Assembly: GCA_039934415.1 (NCBI GenBank)
Contig: JBDTME010000006.1
Coordinates: 17,206-81,205, forward strand
Reading direction: 5' to 3'
Source: Patescibacteria group bacterium
GTDB taxonomy: Bacteria; Patescibacteriota; Microgenomatia; UBA1400; PJMF01
Length of the DNA: 64,000 bases
Numbering within the stretch: position 1 is the first letter of the stretch; each line of letters begins with the position of its first letter. The position numbers and the translations under genes are program-made. The notes below the pieces were generated by a model. The model had not been told where the DNA came from and did no database searches. It worked only from the letters and a program-made list of their open reading frames with translations. This document shows positions 3,889-48,907 of this stretch, piece after piece.

Positions 3889-4770
3889 ATGGCTTCCAAA
3901 CGTGATTACTATGAAATTTTAGGTGTAGATAAAAAGGCTTCAGAGGCTGATATTAAGGCTGCCTATCGGAAGATGGCTCTGAAGTGGCATCCAGATCGCA
4001 ATGCAGATAATAAGAAGGGTGCCGAGGAAAAATTTAAAGAGATTAACGAAGCCTACCAAGTTCTCTCAGATAAACAGAAAAAGCAGTCATACGACCAGTT
4101 TGGCCACGCTGCCTTTGAGAATGGTGGTGGAGGAGGAGCGGCTGGGAATCCATTTGCTGGCGGTTTCCGGACGGGTCCGTTTCAGTGGTCGTATCAATCA
4201 AGTAGTGACGGAAATCCTTTTGAAGGTTTTGGTGGTGATGCAGGTTTTGGCGATCCTTTTGACATCTTCGAGCAATTCTTTGGTGGAAGTGCGGGAGGAT
4301 TTAACCGACAACGCAAACCTCGATACTCACTTCGTATAGAGTTCATGGAAGCAGTTAAAGGTGTTGAAAAAACGGTGGTAATTCAGGGTAAAGAACATAA
4401 GATTAAAATCCCAGCTGGAGCTTCAGAAGGGGTCCGGATTCAGTTTGATGATTTTGAAGTGACGATTGATGTCAAACCTGATGCCCGATTCACTCGAGAA
4501 GGCAATGATTTATTTATTGAAGAGGACGTGCCTTTAGTTACTGCCATCATCGGTGGTGAGATTGAGGTTCCCACTGTCAATAATCCTATCAAAATGAAGG
4601 TCAAAGCGGGTACCCAACCGAACTCATTAGTTCGCTTGCGCGGCGAAGGAGTTCCTCATCTTCGAGGTCATGGCAAAGGTGACCTCTACATTCGTCTCAA
4701 AGTCAAAATTCCCGAGCGTCTAACCGGTCGCCAACGAGAATTACTTCGCCAGTTTGACCAAGCATCCTGA
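3889..4770 (+). CDS. J-domain co-chaperone (DnaJ/CbpA-like, no Zn-finger domain)
   Basis: N-terminal J domain (DYYEILGV...HPDRN), a G/F-rich linker and C-terminal substrate-binding domains. CxxCxGxG repeats are absent. Confidence 0.85.
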
Positions 4771-4815
4771 GAGTGGTAGAATACAGCCTATAATTTTTTA
4801 CTATACTAACTGCCC

Positions 4816-5088
4816 ATGCCTGCCGAATCTTGTCCTCATTTAGTACCCCCCAATCTAAGTAACATTGAAAAAAGAATGCATGAGTTGCAAAAGGCGTTTA
4901 ACGACGGTCAGCTGTTGGAGTATCTTTTAAACTTCACTAAATTTCATCGTTCTCTTGAGGTGTACCTACTCAGAGATGAAGTAAAAAAAAGAATTAAGAA
5001 TATTCGAGCAGAAGAACTCACTGAATTAATGGTAGAAATCTCAAAACTAATGAATGAAGAAGCTGCTTCAGATCGCAATATTCAATAA
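4816..5088 (+). CDS. Hypothetical protein (90 aa)
   Basis: ORF only; no recognisable motif. Confidence 0.3.
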   Translation: MPAESCPHLVPPNLSNIEKRMHELQKAFNDGQLLEYLLNFTKFHRSLEVYLLRDEVKKRIKNIRAEELTELMVEISKLMNEEAASDRNIQ

Positions 5089-5091
5089 AGT

Positions 5092-5745
5092 CTACTGCGT
5101 TTGGTCGGTGTCCACTTGAGGGGTTTCTGGATTAATCGCAGTATTTTGTTGATTCTCCAAATGTTGAGTGAGTCTTACAATACCAGAGGTTTCAATAGCT
5201 TTTTTGCGCTTCTTAATCTGTTCAGTGTCAAAATCCGGGTCAGCGTCATGTTTTATTTCATCAACAATTCTTTGCACACGAACCAACTCCGTAGGATTGA
5301 GTGCATCGAAACTTTTTTTCATTACGCCCTGTGCAACCCGTTCTAACAATGCGTCCGTCTGGTTTTTAGCATTAAACAAATCAAGTAAAGTCTGAGTACC
5401 TTCATCTACTTGTGGAACTTTGTTGACTTGTTTATCAGTTTCTACGATTGGATTTGGTTCAGTAGGTGATTCACTAGTGCTTGTAGCAGTACTAATAGGA
5501 ATATTCTCCTGGTTTGCTCTTGCGATTGCATTATCGACAATGGCGTTATATTCCTCAATTAAAGCGCTGACTGGTTTTTTTTCAGGCACGTCTGCTTTAC
5601 CTTCTTTTGCTCTTTGCGCTGCATTTAGATCTCTTGCTTTCATGACTTGTTCGTCAATAGCAATATCAAAACGTGTTCTGAGATTAGTCTTTTTGTCTTG
5701 GGTTACTCCATTATTAACTGGAGTTTCTAGGGTGGTTGTTGCCAT
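5092..5745 (-). CDS. Hypothetical protein, low-complexity and acidic (217 aa)
   Basis: ORF only; T/S/Q/E-rich with no motif. Confidence 0.3.
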   Translation of the reverse strand: MATTTLETPVNNGVTQDKKTNLRTRFDIAIDEQVMKARDLNAAQRAKEGKADVPEKKPVSALIEEYNAIVDNAIARANQENIPISTATSTSESPTEPNPIVETDKQVNKVPQVDEGTQTLLDLFNAKNQTDALLERVAQGVMKKSFDALNPTELVRVQRIVDEIKHDADPDFDTEQIKKRKKAIETSGIVRLTQHLENQQNTAINPETPQVDTDQTQ

Positions 5746-5995
5746 ATGTCCCCAATATAGGAGTAGTTGCGCAGATTGTCAATGCAATGGCGCTTAGCAT
5801 GGTCTTTTGCCTTGATCTTTTGACGGATCTTGCTATAATGTATCTGGTAGATGAAGAGGTGGGGTGACCCATCTTTTTTTATAGTTATTTAAAATTTGAT
5901 CTTGTTTATTCTGGCTCATCACATTCGCCAGAGATTCACGATCTGACTTGATCGATTTGAAAAGTATCTCAATCGAGTCAACCATCCGGAGTCGT

Positions 5996-7285
5996 ATGCC
6001 AAAAACTAAGAAACAAATCCAACAGCAGATGGTTCGCACTGAGTTCGCCGCTGCTATTAGTCAGATTGCCAAAGAGCGCAAGATCGAGCCAGAGAAAATC
6101 GTGAGTTCGATTGAAGAGGCGTTGGTTGCTGCGTATCGCAAAGATCAAAATATCATTGTTGAGAGAGACGAAGAAGGCAATGAACTGTATCCAAAGCACA
6201 CTGCCAAAGTTGATCAAAATTCTGGTGAATCTAGAATCTTCTTGATGGATAGTGAAAGTGCCGAACCAAAGGATGTAACTCCTCCAGGTTTTGGTCGTAT
6301 TGCAGCTCAAACTGCCAAACAAGTCATTCTCCAAAAAATTCGAGAAGCTGAAAAAGATTCAATCATTCAAGATTACTCAGGTCGTTTGGGTGAGATCGTT
6401 TCTGGTATGGTGCTGCGCATGGACGGCAAGAATGTCATCATCGACATCGGTCGTGGTCAAGGTGTCATGCCTCCTGAAGAACAGATGCGTGGTGAGTTCT
6501 ATAAGATGAATAGTCGAATCACTGTTTTTATTAAAGATATTCGAGAGACGTACAAAGGCCAGGCCATTATCGTTTCTCGCAGTGACAAGCAAGTTGTTTC
6601 CAAATTATTTGAGCGCGAAGTTCCAGAAGTAGCTTCTGGTGTGGTCAAAGTCAAAGCCGTTGCTCGTGAGGCGGGTGTTCGTTCCAAAATTGCCGTGTTC
6701 ACTGATCAATCAGGTGTTGATCCAGTTGGTGCATGTGTCGGTCAAAAAGGCGTTCGTGTCCAAGAAGTCATCAAAGAGTTAAATAACGAAAAAGTTGACA
6801 TCATCCCTTATTCCGAAGATATTAAAATGTACTTGGCCGCTGCCTTAGCACCAGCCGAGAGTCTTTCGATTGATTGGAATGAAGCTGAAAAAACCGCTGT
6901 CGTAACTGCTCCAGATGACCAACTCTCTTTAGCGATTGGTCGAGGTGGCCAAAATGTTCGATTAGCTGCGAAATTAACTGGGTATAAAATTTCTATCAAA
7001 TCCAAATCAGGTGAAGAAAAAGTGAACGTTACTGGTCAAGAAGAGTATGAAATTGACCAACAAATTGATGGCATTACCCCTGAAGTTCGGGCAGTATTGA
7101 TCCAAAATCGCTTGACGACTCTAGAGGATTTGCGCTACCGTAAGGAGAAGTGGATGCTTTTTGATCAAATTCCAGAAGATCAGAAAGAATTATTGAGCAA
7201 CGCAGTTGAAAAATACGAAGGTGAACTTGTGAAACGCGAAAGTGAGCGAGCAGCAGCCGCTGTAGTCGAGCCAAAAGCAGAGTAA
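5996..7285 (+). CDS. nusA: Transcription termination/antitermination factor NusA
   Basis: N-terminal RNAP-binding domain, S1 domain and two KH domains (GxGG, IGRGGQNVRLA). Start chosen at MPKTKK, with GGAG 7 nt upstream. Confidence 0.95.
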   Translation: MPKTKKQIQQQMVRTEFAAAISQIAKERKIEPEKIVSSIEEALVAAYRKDQNIIVERDEEGNELYPKHTAKVDQNSGESRIFLMDSESAEPKDVTPPGFGRIAAQTAKQVILQKIREAEKDSIIQDYSGRLGEIVSGMVLRMDGKNVIIDIGRGQGVMPPEEQMRGEFYKMNSRITVFIKDIRETYKGQAIIVSRSDKQVVSKLFEREVPEVASGVVKVKAVAREAGVRSKIAVFTDQSGVDPVGACVGQKGVRVQEVIKELNNEKVDIIPYSEDIKMYLAAALAPAESLSIDWNEAEKTAVVTAPDDQLSLAIGRGGQNVRLAAKLTGYKISIKSKSGEEKVNVTGQEEYEIDQQIDGITPEVRAVLIQNRLTTLEDLRYRKEKWMLFDQIPEDQKELLSNAVEKYEGELVKRESERAAAAVVEPKAE

Positions 7286-18009: not shown

Positions 18010-18906
18010 ATGTCAGAACAAAAAGAAGATAGAAATCTAGGCAAAAAAGAAGGTAGTCATAGATTGTCTTGGTTACATGATTTGTCAGAAAAACTGGGAG
18101 GCAATGAGTCTGAAGATTTTCAAGCTGTACTAGTTTTTTTTAAGGAGCTTGAAAAACCTACCTTTGATATAGACAAGCAGAATGAGAGTCGTCAAAAGGT
18201 AATGGTGCTAAAGGGTATTCTTTTGGCTGCCGATGCACGAGGTACCGATGTGAATTTAGGTGGTTTTGAAGGGGAGACGAGGGAGTTTCTAGCAGCTGAT
18301 GTCAATCAGGAAGTTTGGCTTGATTTTTTAAAGATTCTATTAAGACATAAAGAAAATTTTCAATATCAGATAGCGGTATTCGCATCGTTAATGAAAGATC
18401 CCCAAGTTGCCCAAGAATTATTTCCAGAGGCGACTTTACTAAAGAGCGAATACCAAATCGTTTTGTCCCACAAACATTGGGATCTTTGTGATAAGTCTGA
18501 AAGAAGACTGGATTTATCATTGACGCACGGGGCAGTTTTAAATGTTGACGGATTTCTGTTGATTAAATTTTTTGGCAGATTTACTGCATTATGCTTAAAA
18601 GATAGTATTAGCTCAAACGGAAATGTTTTTATAAAAGGGTGTTTTTACACACCCGTAGACTCTAATATTAGAGAAGATATTAAAAATAGATTTTATACTA
18701 ATTCAAGTCGAGATATCAAATTAAATAATCCAGAACAATGGTTGCTTATGAGACCATTGGAATTGTCAGATCAGTCAACTGATTCTTACTTAGATGAAAT
18801 TGAGAAAAAATTGCAGAAATTATCCCAGACCTTACCAGCTAGAATAATGGGAAAGTCAAGAAAAGATGCTGCAAGTGAATTTTACGAAGACGAAATAGGT
18901 AATTAA
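18010..18906 (+). CDS. Hypothetical protein, possibly a diverged N-terminal portion of a split SufD
   Basis: It occupies the sufD position right after sufB and has weak VFVDG-like similarity (AVLNVDGFLL). It is in a different frame from the next ORF. Confidence 0.3.
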   Translation: MSEQKEDRNLGKKEGSHRLSWLHDLSEKLGGNESEDFQAVLVFFKELEKPTFDIDKQNESRQKVMVLKGILLAADARGTDVNLGGFEGETREFLAADVNQEVWLDFLKILLRHKENFQYQIAVFASLMKDPQVAQELFPEATLLKSEYQIVLSHKHWDLCDKSERRLDLSLTHGAVLNVDGFLLIKFFGRFTALCLKDSISSNGNVFIKGCFYTPVDSNIREDIKNRFYTNSSRDIKLNNPEQWLLMRPLELSDQSTDSYLDEIEKKLQKLSQTLPARIMGKSRKDAASEFYEDEIGN

Positions 18907-18920
18907 TAAATAATGTAATT

Positions 18921-19445
18921 ATGAAGTCACTAAAAGAAGAACAAGCCAAAGTATTTAAAATAAAGAGTGTTTCTCCTACACCAATCATCATCAGTGGAAC
19001 CGGGAAGTATTTGGTGGAGATTCTCAAAGAAGGCGCACACGCCGAGATTCAAGGCTCTTTTTTAACTACAGGAAGTGAAGAGGTAGATATTGAAATTTTG
19101 ATAGTGCACAAAGTTCCCCACACGACAGCAAAAACGACGCTGAAAGGTGTGGCTCGAGATAAAAGCAAGATTCGTTTCTTGGGGAGGATTATTATCGAGG
19201 AAGGGTGTGGTGATACTAACTCATTTTTAGAAGAGCGAATTTTATTGCTCTCTGATCAAGCCAAAGCCGAAGCTGTGCCAGAGTTGGAGATCTTAGCTGA
19301 CGATGTAAAATGTTCACACGCAGCCACAATTAGTAATATTCCAAAAGAACATTTATTTTACCTGCAAAGCCGTGGCCTTTCTAAGACGGTTGCAGAAGAT
19401 GCAATTGTTGAAGGTTTTTTAAAATTGCCTGAAGCTAAGAATTAA
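18921..19445 (+). CDS. sufD: SufD C-terminal (SufBD-family) domain protein
   Basis: LEILADDVKCSHAATISNIPKEHLFYLQSRGL matches the SufD C-terminal signature (EIYADDVKCSHGATVG..EQLFYLRSRGI). At 174 aa it is too short for a complete SufD. Confidence 0.65.
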   Translation: MKSLKEEQAKVFKIKSVSPTPIIISGTGKYLVEILKEGAHAEIQGSFLTTGSEEVDIEILIVHKVPHTTAKTTLKGVARDKSKIRFLGRIIIEEGCGDTNSFLEERILLLSDQAKAEAVPELEILADDVKCSHAATISNIPKEHLFYLQSRGLSKTVAEDAIVEGFLKLPEAKN

Positions 19446-19520: not shown

Positions 19521-20729
19521 TTGCTTGGATGTTACAATACCTGTATGTTTCAAGGTAGATATATTTTAGGGTTAGTGGCATGTATTGTGCTAGGTTTGGG
19601 TGCGGCTTCATTTTTCTTGCGATTTTTTCCTTCATTGCTTTTACCGGAGAGTCCAGTTCTTCACACGCTAGGGGTGAGAAAACCAATTGTGAATGGATTC
19701 TTGCCCTACTGGTTATTAACAAAAGCAACACCTGAGTCACTTCGCCAGCTCAATAAAATTACGTACTTTGGTTTAGAGATCGATTCTGATGGGACTTTAG
19801 TTGACAAAAGTACTCCGCAAGAAGCGGAACCTGGTTGGCACAAATTAGCGAATGGTGATTTTACTCAAATAGTCTCTCCGCTGAAGGGAAACTCTGATTA
19901 TTCATTACTGTTGCATCAAAGTAATGAAGCAAGTATTAGTGCTTTGCTCAGTGAACCTGTGGTGCATGCTGGTAACTTAGTGAGCGCCGTTGAACCGCTC
20001 ATGAAACAGCATGGATTTACAGACTTAAATATTGATATTGAGAGTTTTCGCACAGCATCCCCAGAAGCTCAAGTCAGAATGAGCACTTTTTTAAGAGAAG
20101 TAAAAGCCCAGTTGAATATACGAAAGTTGGGAACATTAACTACTGAGCTGACAGTTGCCTCACTGGTCAAACAGGCTTTGATGAATCCAACTGAGATTGG
20201 AGAAATTTCTGATCATGTTGTTTTAATGGCGTATGATTTTCGATACACTGGCTCCTTCACATCTGGTGCAGTTGCTCCCATTGGAGGAGCAGGTGAAAAA
20301 ATAGAGTACGATATTGTGAAAAGTGTGCAGCTGGCTTCCCAAGTCATACCAAGTGAGAAGTTACAGTTGGGCATTCCACTCTATGGATATGAGTGGGAAA
20401 CATTGAGCTATGATCCAGAAAGTCCGGTGGTACCTGGGACTGGCAAAACGGCTACTTCTAATCGCATATCAGAGCTCTTGAAAACTTGTACTGACTGTAT
20501 TACTGGTCGTGACGAATTGACCGGTTCACCTTATCTAATACTCCCTCCAAATGAAGACAGTGCTGTCCAGCAAATTTATTACGAAGATCAAGAATCTATT
20601 CAAAAAAAGTTAGATTTAGCAAAGCAGTATAAATTAGGTGGCGTTGCGTTTTGGGCAATCGGCTACGAGACTCCCGAGTTACTTACTCCAATCAGAAAAT
20701 ATGTTAACGAGTACGAACTACTCTTTTAA
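19521..20729 (+). CDS. Membrane-anchored glycoside hydrolase family 18-like protein (chitinase/peptidoglycan hydrolase fold)
   Basis: N-terminal TM helix; GH18 blocks DLNIDIE (DxxDxDxE-like catalytic region), LMAYDFRYTG (MxYD) and GGVAFWAIGYE. Confidence 0.6.
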   Translation: MLGCYNTCMFQGRYILGLVACIVLGLGAASFFLRFFPSLLLPESPVLHTLGVRKPIVNGFLPYWLLTKATPESLRQLNKITYFGLEIDSDGTLVDKSTPQEAEPGWHKLANGDFTQIVSPLKGNSDYSLLLHQSNEASISALLSEPVVHAGNLVSAVEPLMKQHGFTDLNIDIESFRTASPEAQVRMSTFLREVKAQLNIRKLGTLTTELTVASLVKQALMNPTEIGEISDHVVLMAYDFRYTGSFTSGAVAPIGGAGEKIEYDIVKSVQLASQVIPSEKLQLGIPLYGYEWETLSYDPESPVVPGTGKTATSNRISELLKTCTDCITGRDELTGSPYLILPPNEDSAVQQIYYEDQESIQKKLDLAKQYKLGGVAFWAIGYETPELLTPIRKYVNEYELLF

Positions 20730-44495: not shown

Positions 44496-45326
44496 ATGAA
44501 ACGTTTTTTCCTGACTATTTTCGTTGTGCTCTGCCTGTTTCTACTCTTTATTATTGGAAACGATGTCATTAGGACTCATCAGATTACTGAAAATCTGGAT
44601 ACTTCGCCGATTGCACCCTTCGTCCAACCATCCAAATCTATTCAGCTTAGCCAAGATTGGCAAACGCTGTCATCTGGTGTTGAGGTGAGAAGTTTGCAGT
44701 ATGCATATAATGGTCAGTCATATCAAATTCAGGTGATTCGTCTAGATCCGAACCAAGGCACACTTTCTCTTCAGTACGACCAAAGAGGCAAAACAGTTAG
44801 TCAGTGGGCAAAAGGTACTGATCATCTGGTTGTTTCAAATGCCGGTTTTTTCAAAGAAAAGAATGAGCCTGTTGGCTTGCTTTACGTTAATGGGGAACGC
44901 TTAGATAGCCATCGAGTCAAACCAGCAGATTCAGGTTTGCTCGTGATTCATGAAAACGGCATAGAGATTTTAAACCTGGCTAATGCGCCAATTCCAGCAG
45001 AACTTCAAAATGCCGTGCAAACATATCCGGTGCTCATCGATCAGGGGAAATTGATTGCTAATAAAAACATGACCAAGCAAGATCGCAGAACCGCGATAGG
45101 TACGGATAGGGATAGAAGAATCTACCTGTTTACCGCAGGCTACCAACACTTAGGGCTTTATGATTTTGCTAAAGTAATTAGTGAATCTGGACTTCAGTTA
45201 ACTGAAGTGCTCAATCTGGATGGAGGCGGATCGACTGGTGTCGCAGTAGACGCAGGAACTTTTCAGAAAATAATAGAAAGCGAAACAGCAGTCCCAACGG
45301 TGTTAGTCTTCAGTGAGAGAAAGTAG
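44496..45326 (+). CDS. Phosphodiester glycosidase family protein (NAGPA/DUF2233)
   Basis: Signal anchor and the VSNAGFF ... LNLDGGGST motifs. Confidence 0.6.
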   Translation: MKRFFLTIFVVLCLFLLFIIGNDVIRTHQITENLDTSPIAPFVQPSKSIQLSQDWQTLSSGVEVRSLQYAYNGQSYQIQVIRLDPNQGTLSLQYDQRGKTVSQWAKGTDHLVVSNAGFFKEKNEPVGLLYVNGERLDSHRVKPADSGLLVIHENGIEILNLANAPIPAELQNAVQTYPVLIDQGKLIANKNMTKQDRRTAIGTDRDRRIYLFTAGYQHLGLYDFAKVISESGLQLTEVLNLDGGGSTGVAVDAGTFQKIIESETAVPTVLVFSERK

Positions 45327-45333
45327 TGGCTTG

Positions 45334-45399
45334 GTGGAGAGCTCGTATCTGAGATGGAACTCTATCATAGATTGGGTGATGAAATGGGGAAAAGAATTG
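45334..45399 (+). repeat. 66-bp direct repeat, copy A
   Basis: GTGGAGAGCTCGTATCTGAGATGGAAC-N16-TGATGAAATGGGGAAAAGAATTG; the 27-bp and 23-bp blocks are identical to copy B. Confidence 0.85.
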
Positions 45400-45425
45400 G
45401 GGCAAAGTGGTCTACAATATGACCT

Positions 45426-46661
45426 ATGATAGAAACAACTCATGAACCTTCACCCGCTAACGAAGAAAAGAAAGACGTTGATCACCCTTTTTCTACACAA
45501 GCAATTCAAAAACGATTTGATCAATATAGATCATTACCTCCACAACACATAAGAGAAAAAATAAGAGTTCGTTATTTAGGTAAAGCAGGCGAAGAACTTC
45601 AAGAGTATTTAGAAAGCAAGGTGGAGAGTGACAAGTTAATTATAGTAAAGCCTCTATTGCATTTTGAGGATTTTTTAGAGCGATATGAATTGAATGGAAA
45701 AAATTTTCCTGAAGATCTACTTCGGGAGGCTTACATTGATCTATCTAAAGATCTCAAAAGAGTACAAAGGTTTGTCTATTGGTCTTTTACCTTAAAAGAG
45801 TCGATAAATCTTCTTTTAGAAGAATTACCAGAAATGAGAGAGCTCTGCAGACAATTGGAACCAACAGTATCTTTTCTAGATGCAGATGAATTAAATGAAG
45901 ACGATTTTGACGAATATCCTTATGCTGGAGGAGCGATTGGTTCGGGGAACATTAATTTAATTGTTGTGCCTAAGTTTAAAAATTATGAGGAAATAAATAC
46001 TTATCAGATGCTCAGAACTTTTGTTTTTGTTCATGAGTTCTTTCATATTATTAACAGCTTTTATGCCAAGGAAAATTTCGGTTTTTCTCATAGCGAAGAT
46101 TCAATTACTGAAAAACATCGTATATTTACAACTTTACTTGAAGGAACAAGTATCAGTTTGGAATATTTGCTTTTAAAGAGGTTGGCACGTTTACCTGATA
46201 ATGATCAGTTAGAAAATGTTAAAAAATATGGAATATGGAGATTAAATAATGTGCTAAAACTGGCAAAGTATAGAGGTGAGAAGGCTCGTACTACTGTTAC
46301 TGAGTATTGGAATGGTGAAGAAGGTGCAGGTGAAAATTATTATGAAGATAAAAAGACTGAACCTGTTTACAATTTCCCGCATCTAAATTATTCAGAAGGA
46401 GCAAAGTTAGGTATTCAACTACAAAGAAATGGATGGACTGCCCATGACATTCCTGAACTTTGGAAGAAAATCAAAATGATTATTGATGAACTTATAAGTG
46501 AGAAAAAAATATCACCTGCCTTTTCTGGATCTAAACCTTTTGATATATATACTGAACTTGCTCAATATGGAAAGTTTGCAACATGGAGTAATCTAAAAGA
46601 GCGACTACTTCAACTTCGACCTGAGAGGAGTAATGAAACTATCGAAAATAAATTCGAGTAA
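45426..46661 (+). CDS. Hypothetical cytoplasmic protein with an HExxH (VHEFFH) putative metallopeptidase motif
   Basis: 411 aa with no signal peptide. HEFFH plus a downstream Glu fits a gluzincin-like layout. No family recognised. Flanked by the direct repeats. Confidence 0.35.
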   Translation: MIETTHEPSPANEEKKDVDHPFSTQAIQKRFDQYRSLPPQHIREKIRVRYLGKAGEELQEYLESKVESDKLIIVKPLLHFEDFLERYELNGKNFPEDLLREAYIDLSKDLKRVQRFVYWSFTLKESINLLLEELPEMRELCRQLEPTVSFLDADELNEDDFDEYPYAGGAIGSGNINLIVVPKFKNYEEINTYQMLRTFVFVHEFFHIINSFYAKENFGFSHSEDSITEKHRIFTTLLEGTSISLEYLLLKRLARLPDNDQLENVKKYGIWRLNNVLKLAKYRGEKARTTVTEYWNGEEGAGENYYEDKKTEPVYNFPHLNYSEGAKLGIQLQRNGWTAHDIPELWKKIKMIIDELISEKKISPAFSGSKPFDIYTELAQYGKFATWSNLKERLLQLRPERSNETIENKFE

Positions 46662-46667
46662 TTTTAG

Positions 46668-46733
46668 TGGAGAGCTCGTATCTGAGATGGAACACGATTG
46701 TTGAATGGCTGATGAAATGGGGAAAAGAATTGA
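46668..46733 (+). repeat. 66-bp direct repeat, copy B
   Basis: Same sequence blocks as copy A, in the same orientation, 1334 bp away. Confidence 0.85.
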
Positions 46734-46746
46734 GAGAGAGCACCAG

Positions 46747-47568
46747 TTAGAAATTTCTAAATGAGTTTCTTTCCACATCGTAGTTTTCTGAAGGAATTAA
46801 TTGAAATGACCACATATCAGCAGACCAAAAGAAATAGTAAATAGGGTCATTTATTGGATTTATAACTAGACTAGCTCTCCCGCTGTTCATACAAGATAAA
46901 CCTCTTCTTTGCATAGCCTTAACTTCATTATTGTCATTTACTGTAACTCTGTATCCCAAACATTTAGTGGATTGAATCGGCAGAAAGGGAGTTGGACAGT
47001 AAAAATAGGTTATGTCATTTTCTGAGTACCGAATATTAAAAAAGTTTTTTTCAGAATGCATTGGTCGTCCGTATTTTTCTTCAAGCTGCTGAAAAGAGCT
47101 AGCTTTCTGTGTAACTACTATTCTGGTATTACCTTTTTCGTCAAAGATGGGAGCTTGTTGCTCTAAGAATTCATTTCTTGATATATCTAAAACACAGTCA
47201 AAGGTAACTTCTCTACTTCTGTAAAGAAAAGAAACCACCCATACAATGCTCCACAGAAAGACGAATGCAGCTGCAAACTTACCCCATTTTTTTCTTGATA
47301 CTGAAGTGAATAAACTTTGATTTTTGAAAGCCTTACTAGCTTTGTAGCCTACAAAGACAACTCCAGCGATAACCATTATTGGGAGAATCGCAAACAGATC
47401 CAAGAATTTAATATAATACCAGCTCAAAAAGATGGTATTGAATACAGTCAAACTTTTCCAAATAACCGAAGTTTTCGATTTACTAAAAGAGTAATAAGAG
47501 GAGATGAATAAAAAAAGAAAATGTACGAGGTAAATGATCGGTAGTGACGATTTAAAACTGTCAAGCAT
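46747..47568 (-). CDS. Hypothetical membrane protein (273 aa)
   Basis: Multiple N-terminal TM helices and a Cys-containing C-terminal domain. No motif. Confidence 0.3.
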   Translation of the reverse strand: MLDSFKSSLPIIYLVHFLFLFISSYYSFSKSKTSVIWKSLTVFNTIFLSWYYIKFLDLFAILPIMVIAGVVFVGYKASKAFKNQSLFTSVSRKKWGKFAAAFVFLWSIVWVVSFLYRSREVTFDCVLDISRNEFLEQQAPIFDEKGNTRIVVTQKASSFQQLEEKYGRPMHSEKNFFNIRYSENDITYFYCPTPFLPIQSTKCLGYRVTVNDNNEVKAMQRRGLSCMNSGRASLVINPINDPIYYFFWSADMWSFQLIPSENYDVERNSFRNF

Positions 47569-47580
47569 GTCTTGGCCTCC

Positions 47581-47733
47581 TCAGAACATGCTTTGAGGTG
47601 CAACAAAGATGTTTAACAAGGTAAAGAACCAAAGGATACTTAATCCAGAATAGAAGAAAGCCGAACTGAAAGATTTTCTGAAACGAATGAAGTTAAAGAT
47701 ATAAACGGAAACAAAAATCCCCGCCCACAACAT
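47581..47733 (-). CDS. Small hydrophobic protein; start uncertain
   Basis: The longer ORF in the track (to 47838) would overlap the tmRNA 3' end, so an internal Met start is chosen. Confidence 0.2.
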   Translation of the reverse strand: MLWAGIFVSVYIFNFIRFRKSFSSAFFYSGLSILWFFTLLNIFVAPQSMF

Positions 47734-47784
47734 AAAATGTAGGTTTGCGATATTCGATGCTGATTGAACCAGTATCATAATATT

Positions 47785-48210
47785 TGGTGGAGATGAGGGG
47801 TTATGAACCCCTGTCCGCATACGGCAGACTAGCATCATCTACAGATATAGTTCACTTTTCGTAAAGAGTCGTAGGTGAGTGAACGAACCTGACAACCCTT
47901 CGCTGTTCAAAGTCTTATGTCTTTACGGAACAGTACGTATCGACAGTCACACGAACTTGGTTTTCACCCAATCGTTTCCGCTCGTGAAAGATCTCGATTG
48001 AATGTCTATTTAAGCAGCGTAAGCTAAATTAGCAGCAGCTGGTGTGATAGAAGCAATTGCTGAGTCGACTACTCCGAAGAGTGAGGCAACAGCAGTTTTT
48101 GCTTTACTGACAATTGAATTGACAGTTAGTTTTTTAACTATGTTTAGCCTCAGTAGTAAAGGAGGATCTGCAGATGTTAATGTGCGTACACGTCGAGTCA
48201 ATACATCCCC
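47785..48210 (-). ncRNA. ssrA: tmRNA (SsrA)
   Basis: Minus-strand 5' end GGGGATGTATTGACTCGACG resembles the tmRNA 5' consensus GGGGnUGAUUCUGGAUUCGACG. The 3' end GGACAGGGGTTCATAACCCCTCATCTCCACCA has a T-arm-like hairpin, and the acceptor strand CATCTCC pairs with the 5' GGGGATG (one G-U) before a terminal ACCA. An internal tag reading frame ends ...AANLAYAA-TAA. Confidence 0.8.
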
Positions 48211-48222
48211 GTGTAGGGCTGA

Positions 48223-48251
48223 ATTATACCAAATTTTGACGTAAATATCAA
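48223..48251 (-). promoter_or_regulatory. Sigma70-type promoter for ssrA
   Basis: Read on the minus strand: TTGATA, a 17-bp spacer, then TATAAT, about 12 nt upstream of the GGGG 5' end. Confidence 0.5.
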
Positions 48252-48277
48252 TAAATTCCTGGTTTTTACATAATGCC

Positions 48278-48907
48278 TTAATCGCCATGGGCAAATACCA
48301 AACCAATGACTTTTTTCGCCTGGTGGTTTTTTAAGATTCTGGCACACTCGTTGAGCGTGGTTCCAGTGGTGGTGACGTCGTCGATGAGCGCTATGGTTTT
48401 CCCGGTTATTGAGGAATTTGGTGAAATATTGAACGCATCGGTTAAGTGGGTGAGTCGTTTGGCTCGATCTAACTGGGCTTGGGGAGTAGTCGCTTTTGGT
48501 CGGTGAAGTGCGTTCACTATGGGAATTTCCCAGCGTTTTGACAAATGTTTGGCCAACAGTTCTGCTTGGTTAAAGCCTCTTTCTCGTTGTCGGGATCTAT
48601 GCAATGGCACCGGAACTAAAAAATCGACAGTAGGTCTGGCCATTTTCTCAAACATGATTTCGCCGATCGTAGGTGCGAGTGCGTATGAGCAGCCAAACTT
48701 ATACATATGGATAAAATCGCTGCCGGTTTTCGCATATTTTGTACAGGCTTGGAGTTCGTCTAAAGTAGGAGTGGGCAGATCAATCACTAGAGGTTGGTCA
48801 AAGAACGACATTTTTTCGTAACAGTTTAAACAAATATATCCACCTATCGAACCACAAGTGACACAGAGTGGCGGAAAGAGTAAGTCCAAGAAGAATTCGA
48901 GTACCAT
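48278..48907 (-). CDS. comFC: ComF/ComFC-family phosphoribosyltransferase-like protein
   Basis: N-terminal Zn-ribbon (CVTCGS...CLNCY), FNQAELLA motif and PRTase-type LIDDVTTTGTTL. Confidence 0.8.
   Translation of the reverse strand: MVLEFFLDLLFPPLCVTCGSIGGYICLNCYEKMSFFDQPLVIDLPTPTLDELQACTKYAKTGSDFIHMYKFGCSYALAPTIGEIMFEKMARPTVDFLVPVPLHRSRQRERGFNQAELLAKHLSKRWEIPIVNALHRPKATTPQAQLDRAKRLTHLTDAFNISPNSSITGKTIALIDDVTTTGTTLNECARILKNHQAKKVIGLVFAHGD

Follow-up and report, generated by a model that had tools for sequence, protein, structure and literature searches.

A 66-nt repeat pair facing the tmRNA gene of a Patescibacteria genome as probable orphaned ends of serine-integrase elements

The DNA analysed here, called the window, is a whole stretch of 64 kb from a metagenome-assembled genome of Patescibacteria, a group of the Candidate Phyla Radiation (CPR). 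It contains two 66-nt direct repeats that lie between a phosphodiester glycosidase (NAGPA) gene and the gene for transfer-messenger RNA (tmRNA; ssrA), and that bracket a gene for a 411-aa protein. These repeats are probably the orphaned distal ends of elements that used a serine integrase and targeted the 3′ end of ssrA, each end consisting of an attachment (att) core and the severed 3′ coding end of the integrase gene, and the two would bound stacked islets that are free of integrase genes. An earlier reading of the same DNA, hereafter the original prediction, had described a cassette-like insertion and left two options, namely insertion of the bracketed gene with duplication of a 3′-untranslated region (UTR) or att-like sequence, or duplication of a 3′ regulatory or terminator element. 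The features of the locus are listed below in window coordinates.

44496-45326, plus strand: NAGPA (phosphodiester glycosidase) gene (Pfam PF09992, E 1.8e-21), conserved host flank beyond the putative hotspot
45331-45340, minus strand: outer core TCTCCACCAA, equal to the last 9 nt of the tmRNA plus 1 nt; putative distal attR-type border
45334-45399 (66 nt), plus strand: repeat copy 1, in an open reading frame (ORF) that runs to 45429 with the codons VESSYLRWNSIIDWVMKWGKELGQSGLQYDL and a stop; its TGA overlaps the ATG of the 411-aa gene; proposed as the orphan 3′ end of a serine-integrase gene
45341-46663, no strand: islet A, 33.9% G+C, with the 411-aa gene
45426-46661, plus strand: gene of the 411-aa protein, cargo of islet A, a rare family with HExxH, E239/E246 and YSEGAKLA..NGW..DLP conserved
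46664-46673, minus strand: internal core TCTCCACTAA, differing from the tmRNA end at one position; putative junction of islets A and B
46667-46732 (66 nt), plus strand: repeat copy 2, in an ORF that runs to 46750 with the codons VESSYLRWNTIVEWLMKWGKELRESTS and a stop; proposed as a second orphan integrase-tail fragment
46674-47783, no strand: islet B, 35.3% G+C, with the 273-aa gene
46747-47568, minus strand: gene of the 273-aa protein, cargo of islet B, hydrophobic in its N-terminal half and of no known family
47784-47793, minus strand: ssrA-end core TCTCCACCAA, the tmRNA 3′ end
47785-48210, minus strand: tmRNA (ssrA; Rfam RF00023, 79.1 bits, and ARAGORN), with the 3′ end …CATCTCCACCA as the putative insertion point
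48278-48907, minus strand: ComF-like phosphoribosyltransferase gene (Pfam PF00156, PF18912), conserved host flank on the other side of the tmRNA

A repeat search of the window detected a direct repeat of 69 nt (45331-45399 and 46664-46732; 88% identity; 1333 nt from start to start). Within it, the 66-nt repeat consists of an exact 27-nt block (block A), a 16-nt centre differing at 7 positions and an exact 23-nt block (block B). All differences between the copies (7/7) fall in element positions 28-43, and their clustering in 16 of 66 nt has a P of about 5e-5. Between copy 1 and copy 2, third codon positions are changed at 0/15 in the flanking blocks and at 4/6 in the centre (Fisher p = 0.0025). 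Each block occurs twice in the 64 kb with up to three mismatches allowed (0.00-0.01 expected), and the search for further copies that the original prediction had proposed gave none beyond these two in the window. Two Logan contigs from separate sequencing runs are 100% identical to the window over 45227-48386 (L001, including both copies) and 45363-47381 (L002). Since these independent runs match the window exactly, an assembly artefact is excluded, and the repeat pair of the original prediction is real, with both blocks exact and the layout reproduced. Several details needed adjustment. The two 66-bp copies stand, with copy 2 starting at 46667 and not 46668. The repeats do lie close behind stop codons, at gaps of 7 nt (TAG of NAGPA, 45324-45326) and 5 nt (TAA of the 411-aa gene, 46659-46661), not of 8 and 7 nt. 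The TAGTGG said to precede both copies applies loosely, being found 4 nt upstream of copy 1 (45324-45329) and overlapping copy 2 (46665-46670).

The location of the repeats directly after stop codons would suit a structured RNA or DNA element such as an intrinsic terminator, a 3′-UTR element, a small RNA (sRNA), a repetitive extragenic palindromic (REP) sequence or an integron attC-like hairpin. However, fold stability of both strands was not above that of shuffled sequence (z-scores insignificant), and copies 1 and 2 fold differently. RNAalifold found no consensus structure on either strand of the seven copies described below (energy about 0), and an Rfam scan of the repeat returned no match. 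The imperfect inverted repeat forming a hairpin that defines attC was seen on neither strand, and neither a GC-rich hairpin with a T-run nor many dispersed copies, as in terminators and REP sequences, were found within the 64 kb, which hold two copies. Given the missing fold signal and Rfam match, a terminator, sRNA, REP sequence or attC-like hairpin is not supported; this branch of the original prediction is abandoned, and a structured element is considered extremely improbable. A displaced tmRNA 3′ end, with T-arm and acceptor, was also tried as a candidate and rejected: the body fails to align in MAFFT, the Rfam tmRNA model is silent and the last 7-10 nt alone match.

The repeat can be translated over about 25 codons into a Trp-rich peptide, [V/M][D/E]x5-WN-x4-W-x-MKWG-x-[EK]-LG, and this stretch is termed the module here. 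Seven copies were found on five contigs of CPR (Patescibacteria-like) bacteria: two in the window, two in L005 and one each in L013, L016 and L018. Copy 1 of L005 matches the blocks of the window at 25/27 and 21/23 nt, and its centre differs from that of window copy 1 by synonymous changes alone (TCT ATC ATA GAT in the window vs TCG ATT ATA GAC), while window copy 2 differs from copy 1 mainly by conservative replacements (S/T, I/V, D/E, V/L). The copies of L013, L016 and L018, obtained by a codon-degenerate scan of genome and metagenome collections, share about 34-40 of 66 nt with the window and retain the peptide. They also agree outside the search pattern, where an in-register GTG or ATG comes with Asp and the motif is followed by ELG[KRQ]. 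The seventh copy, L005 copy 2, was revealed by a profile search 647 nt downstream of L005 copy 1 and in the same orientation. The sole frame open in every compared copy is +0, and codon-position entropy is 1.00 at third positions vs 0.73 and 0.56 at the others. Conservation ends near codon 25, with unrelated tails of 2-22 codons beyond it. Strict codon-degenerate scans of genome and viral collections returned nothing, and relaxed scans returned mainly chance matches.

The module start coincides with a GTGGA core in all copies. Between the window and L005, whose NAGPA proteins are 50% identical, the module shows 91% and 87% identity vs 65-77% for housekeeping genes and is the best-conserved DNA of the two; such conservation above that of genes fits a mobile or site-constrained sequence. 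The module ORFs were never called as genes, and the peptide matched no known family. A Shine-Dalgarno test of the module was uninformative, as host genes of the window score like random sequence. Two further coding explanations were rejected. The 'cores' of a precursor of a ribosomally synthesized and post-translationally modified peptide or bacteriocin would be 2-22 unrelated residues, and read-through or frameshift extension of the upstream genes is contradicted by unequal frame offsets at the two copies (+1 and +2). Separately, the peptide profile matches a tail-like sequence at L020:1997-2056 (minus strand; E about 1e-6), which ends in …LYQWNAMLTWIMKWGGG and a stop and immediately precedes a 400-aa gene. 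This sequence carries no GTGGA core, no tmRNA or integrase was found within 12 kb of it, and it may be a decayed eighth copy.

The tmRNA 3′ end points at the repeats, with copy 2 at a distance of 1 kb. On the plus strand the core shared with ssrA reads GTGGAGA, or TTGGTGGAGA. Of all same-orientation matches to the tmRNA 3′ end in the cargo, the TCTCCACCAA at the edge of copy 1 is the best, and it marks the border of the low-G+C DNA, which has 34-35% G+C across 45341-47783 vs 42.6% and 43.6% in the flanks. Exact TCTCCACCAA occurs three times in the window, with 0.002 occurrences expected in one strand of the 2.45-kb cargo. The third occurrence (19011-19020, minus strand) lies inside an apparent coding region between ORFs 18010-18906 and 19521-20729, matches no RNA family and is taken as chance. 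The window thereby presents foreign DNA at the ssrA 3′ end and a short (10 nt) repeat of the gene terminus exactly at the distal border, as in ssrA islands. In addition, the 10 nt to the left of the internal core, AAATTCGAGT, also occur in the left flank of L005 copy 1, a weak hint that internal junctions may be attP-like. No circular junction or empty site was found, and the core is deduced from sequence.

The scaffold AcrB-MFP-NAGPA … tmRNA-ComF is retained in L004, L031, L035 and L037, four relatives that are syntenic with the window, and the cargo between NAGPA and tmRNA differs among these four and the window. The att-type boundary of inserted DNA that the original prediction had envisaged is thus upheld by the tmRNA-end 10-mer at the edge of copy 1, the low G+C between the borders and the variable cargo of relatives. 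In the orthologous loci, whose comparison it had suggested as a check, the 411-aa gene is absent from all syntenic relatives, consistent with a foreign gene, and the module is not found in L004, L031, L035 or L037 either. In another lineage, represented by L013 (CAZDRB010000010.1) and L018 (a CPR contig from the ACD aquifer), the module lies directly downstream of smpB and points to the 3′ end of a tmRNA gene in convergent orientation; the cargo in between measures 0.9 kb (L013) or 4 kb (L018). Every locus in which a tmRNA is visible (window, L013 and L018) has cargo between the tmRNA 3′ end and a module that faces it.

The position directly downstream of smpB in L013 and L018 raises the alternative that the module is a conserved host feature at the edge of the tmRNA hotspot, ancestral between smpB and tmRNA and duplicated in the window by homologous recombination. 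Nevertheless, the module is absent from all four syntenic relatives, its neighbours vary (NAGPA, 411 aa, 338 aa and 425 aa), two genomes carry two copies, and its 87-91% identity between genomes whose genes are at 65-77% points to transfer; this alternative is regarded as quite improbable. A local illegitimate or homologous event without site-specific recombination, the repeats being a target or homology duplication, would explain why direct repeats precisely flank one gene. It appears very improbable, however, for unrelated contigs carry the module as well, in company with integrases and tmRNA. Furthermore, with seven differences that cluster in 16 nt and are mainly conservative codon changes, the copies resemble a pair of alleles and not a duplicate that has drifted.

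Integrases of the relatives connect the module to serine recombination. L018 is the one element seen with both ends. It encodes at 4649-6217 a large serine recombinase (LSR) of 522 aa with Resolvase (PF00239), Recombinase (PF07508) and Zn-ribbon (PF13408) domains, and this gene overlaps the tmRNA 3′ end by 47 nt, its last 15 codons being tmRNA antisense. The LSR of L005 is 59% identical to it (BLASTP) and co-oriented with both L005 module copies. At the L018 junction the LSR reads …CCT AGT GTG GAG ACG… and the module begins GTG GAC ACC…; as both read GTG GA in register, the shared GTGGA lies in a common frame. When the L018 LSR (to 6172) is joined to the module (from 2145), a single ORF of 555 aa results, in which …SAFGSDKTPS is directly followed by VDTLLESWNHLSQWIMKWGGKLGRS…, and the reconstructed L018 attP carries …CCCCTAGTGTGGACACCCTACTT…. 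In L018 alone, therefore, both features of a split integrase could be observed, namely an ORF that crosses the proximal junction and a distal fragment that continues in frame over the core.

According to the orphaned-end explanation, the NAGPA-to-tmRNA interval would be an insertion hotspot in which islets A and B became stacked. The tmRNA-distal end of each islet would consist of a 7-10-bp core shared with ssrA, followed by the Trp-rich module of about 25 codons, and this module would form the distal terminus of LSR-using integrative elements, a CPR family with the ssrA 3′ end as its insertion point. Once such an element is excised as a circle, its LSR gene would read on into the peptide, which would place attP within the 3′ end of that gene, and the tail would be translated within the LSR in the free form. 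Integration would then cut off the last 25-45 integrase codons. The window repeats would be attR-type or internal junctions of two related elements, on whose site an LSR would have acted and whose integrase genes would since have gone. Block A could serve as an attP half-site. A split integrase would explain the coding signature without gene features, the start at the core and the co-orientation with the integrase.

The chief rival to the orphaned ends, which we consider unlikely, sees in the module a micro-protein gene (27-47 aa) in its own right, placed at the element end and perhaps encoding a recombination directionality factor or a regulator, or acting as an upstream ORF that couples promoter-less cargo to the host gene. 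It draws on the GTG or ATG found in the same register in all copies (ATG in L013), on the coding-like substitutions, on the stop overlapping the next start (ATGA) at window copy 1 and in L018, and on starts 5-8 nt past the upstream stop in the window, L013 and L016. Yet conservation ends at about codon 25 and gives way to unrelated tails, three copies run into a convergent gene, and the peptide belongs to no known family. Moreover, the start at the att core and the frame match with the L018 integrase would be left unexplained.

Several observations weigh against the orphaned-end explanation itself. The frame match comes from one locus, with a prior of 1 in 3, and the 3′ end of the L005 integrase lies beyond the examined locus. 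An uninterrupted integrase with the tail was found in none of the viral contigs, phage records and protein collection, which lacked any close relative of the L018 integrase: the phage records gave integrases of at most 27% identity, the viral contigs a single GC-rich relative that lacks the tail and shares 39% identity with the L018 LSR, and an exact-sequence look-up the integrated 522-aa integrase alone. No integrase was detected in or near the window islets by tblastn with the L018 LSR or by Pfam on the cargo, so the islets are remnants and not an intact element. One-gene islets without an integrase make up 4/5 of those bounded by the module (window A and B, 647 bp in L005 and about 880 bp in L013), for which random decay gives no obvious account. 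Synonymous sites of block B (43-66 nt from the core) are more constant than an attP half-site or a peptide requires, and core identity elsewhere is only 6-8 nt. Copy counts in the window cover 64 kb of the source genome, and further copies elsewhere are possible. Finally, canonical serine integrases recombine attP with attB only, and tandem stacking at attL is unexpected.

The viral relative of the L018 LSR is encoded at L036:3229-4887 (IMGVR_UViG_3300001473_000094). Its homology extends to the equivalent of the junction (…DFCGSKSKM), past which the sequence is diverged with GGTTCGAA-like words, and no tRNA was detected there. In L005, the DNA from copy 2 to the integrase (L005:14341-20846, about 6.7 kb) is phage-like, with a helix-turn-helix gene, a small terminase and several small orphan genes, and resembles a satellite or a small integrative element more than a complete prophage.

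The cargo of the islets is consistent with foreign origin. The bracketed 411-aa gene, held to be a recent acquisition in the original prediction, is indeed foreign, with 34% G+C vs 43% in the flanks, no counterpart in any syntenic relative and few weak relatives. Its protein has no close match but itself, and about 15 weak relatives were found by HMMER among 1.84 billion representative proteins. The predicted HExxH motif is present as HEFFH. In an alignment of 10 sequences of the family, H203, E204, H207 and E246 are nearly invariant and E239 is invariant. No match was obtained in Pfam, PHROG, PADLOC or NCBIfam, although for one relative a sub-threshold similarity to DUF5700, a putative zinc peptidase family, was seen. 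The AlphaFold (AF2) model is mainly helical with a mean pLDDT of 65.6 and has no match in the PDB, and neither a profile nor a fold of a peptidase family was recognized. From its motifs alone, the protein is plausibly a gluzincin-like metallopeptidase. The 273-aa gene of islet B is preceded by a GAGGAGG ribosome-binding site (47569-47590, minus strand; -11.5 kcal/mol) that is atypical for the genome, and a site of this strength fits a foreign origin.

In classical ssrA islands the integrase is of the tyrosine type, and the repeated piece of ssrA is longer. The 2003 article of Williams, 'Traffic at the tmRNA gene', reportedly describes islands and prophages at the 3′ end of ssrA, among them tandem arrays with repeats of that end as borders. 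The window resembles them in its variable foreign DNA at the ssrA 3′ end, its distally repeated terminus and its putatively stacked units split by a repeat. Unlike them, relatives of the window element carry an LSR, the core is 6-10 bp, the long repeat is element sequence and not ssrA, and the window islets carry no integrase. Integron cassettes carry attC sites, and cis-mobilisable elements (CIMEs) without an integrase accrete beside integrative and conjugative elements. The islets are similar to both as one-gene, integrase-less units with a recurring site-like boundary and an apparent head-to-tail stacking, whereas they lack the attC-type hairpin and IntI of integron cassettes, and their mobility is putative.

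In Myxococcus phage Mx8, attP lies within the integrase ORF and integration converts intP to intX. The location of att inside a tyrosine integrase gene in the SSV-type 'suicidal' integrases of archaeal viruses and plasmids has been said to be exclusive to Archaea (PMC8371274). The elements proposed here would share with them att in the integrase gene, integration into a tRNA-type gene that splits the ORF and a fragment left at the far end. In the SSV type the split inactivates the gene (PMC8371274), whereas here a serine recombinase of CPR bacteria would exchange its last 25-45 or so codons for 15 from tmRNA antisense. In Riemerella RAP44-like phages, attP also lies within the integrase ORF, with a 5′ split (nt 25-43) and a tRNA target (PMC12169736). 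Integration of RAP44-like phages and Mx8, at the 3′ end of a tRNA gene, likewise changes the C-terminus of the integrase or deposits a short piece of its gene at the opposite prophage end, but these phages use tyrosine integrases and tRNA genes, in place of the serine recombinase and ssrA found here. The integration-dependent immunity of mycobacteriophage BPs and its relatives places attP inside the repressor gene, whose degradation tag is lost, and involves a tyrosine integrase (PMC4557955). As in BPs (PMC4557955), the free and integrated forms would encode different C-termini, in the present case a putative built-in state switch predicted from sequence.

If correct, the orphaned-end explanation would widen the range of the 'att inside the integrase gene' arrangement to include a serine recombinase and the mobile elements of CPR/Patescibacteria, which are little studied, and would make ssrA a hotspot for CPR serine-integrase elements. 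A C-terminal tail present in the free form only would be a candidate switch for directionality or self-limitation. A broader generalization can be offered tentatively, and we hold it with low confidence. CPR bacteria may harbour small serine-integrase elements with attP inside the integrase gene, in which insertion into ssrA swaps a Trp-rich C-terminal tail for a tmRNA-antisense one, forming a free/integrated switch as the serine counterpart of the archaeal 'suicidal' integrases; leftover modules might then serve as landing pads or cassette boundaries for the stacking of integrase-less one-gene units. Serine integrases with defined natural sites are of practical interest for genome engineering. 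For annotation, the orphaned-end explanation would account for a recurrent unannotated conserved sequence and flag the adjoining orphan genes as horizontally acquired cargo. The window feature itself is a remnant and ordinary in kind.

Other observations were made at the tmRNA loci. ARAGORN missed the tmRNA in L004, L013 and L018, where it was run, and Rfam RF00023 found these genes at 69-115 bits, as it also did the tmRNA in L031, L035 and L037; ARAGORN seems to overlook the tmRNAs of CPR bacteria. L037 has a second variable stretch before ComF (L037:9132-12992), 5′ of its tmRNA, which contains a 261-aa ORF, a RecQ-like helicase and a Bro-N protein, and ssrA seems to accept insertions on both sides in this lineage. 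Within a 231-aa cargo ORF of L013 (1824-1841), TTGAATACCTCTCCGTCT resembles the T-loop and acceptor of the L013 tmRNA (-23 to -6) in the same orientation and may be an older displaced tmRNA fragment. The record of L013 is labelled 'uncultured Pseudomonadales bacterium', yet its SmpB is 74% and a 586-aa neighbour 49% identical to those of L018, and the label looks doubtful because both proteins resemble those of a CPR contig. Elsewhere in the window, a flavin mononucleotide (FMN) riboswitch (RF00050, 86.6 bits) was found at 1428-1546 on the plus strand, upstream of ORF 1611-2525.

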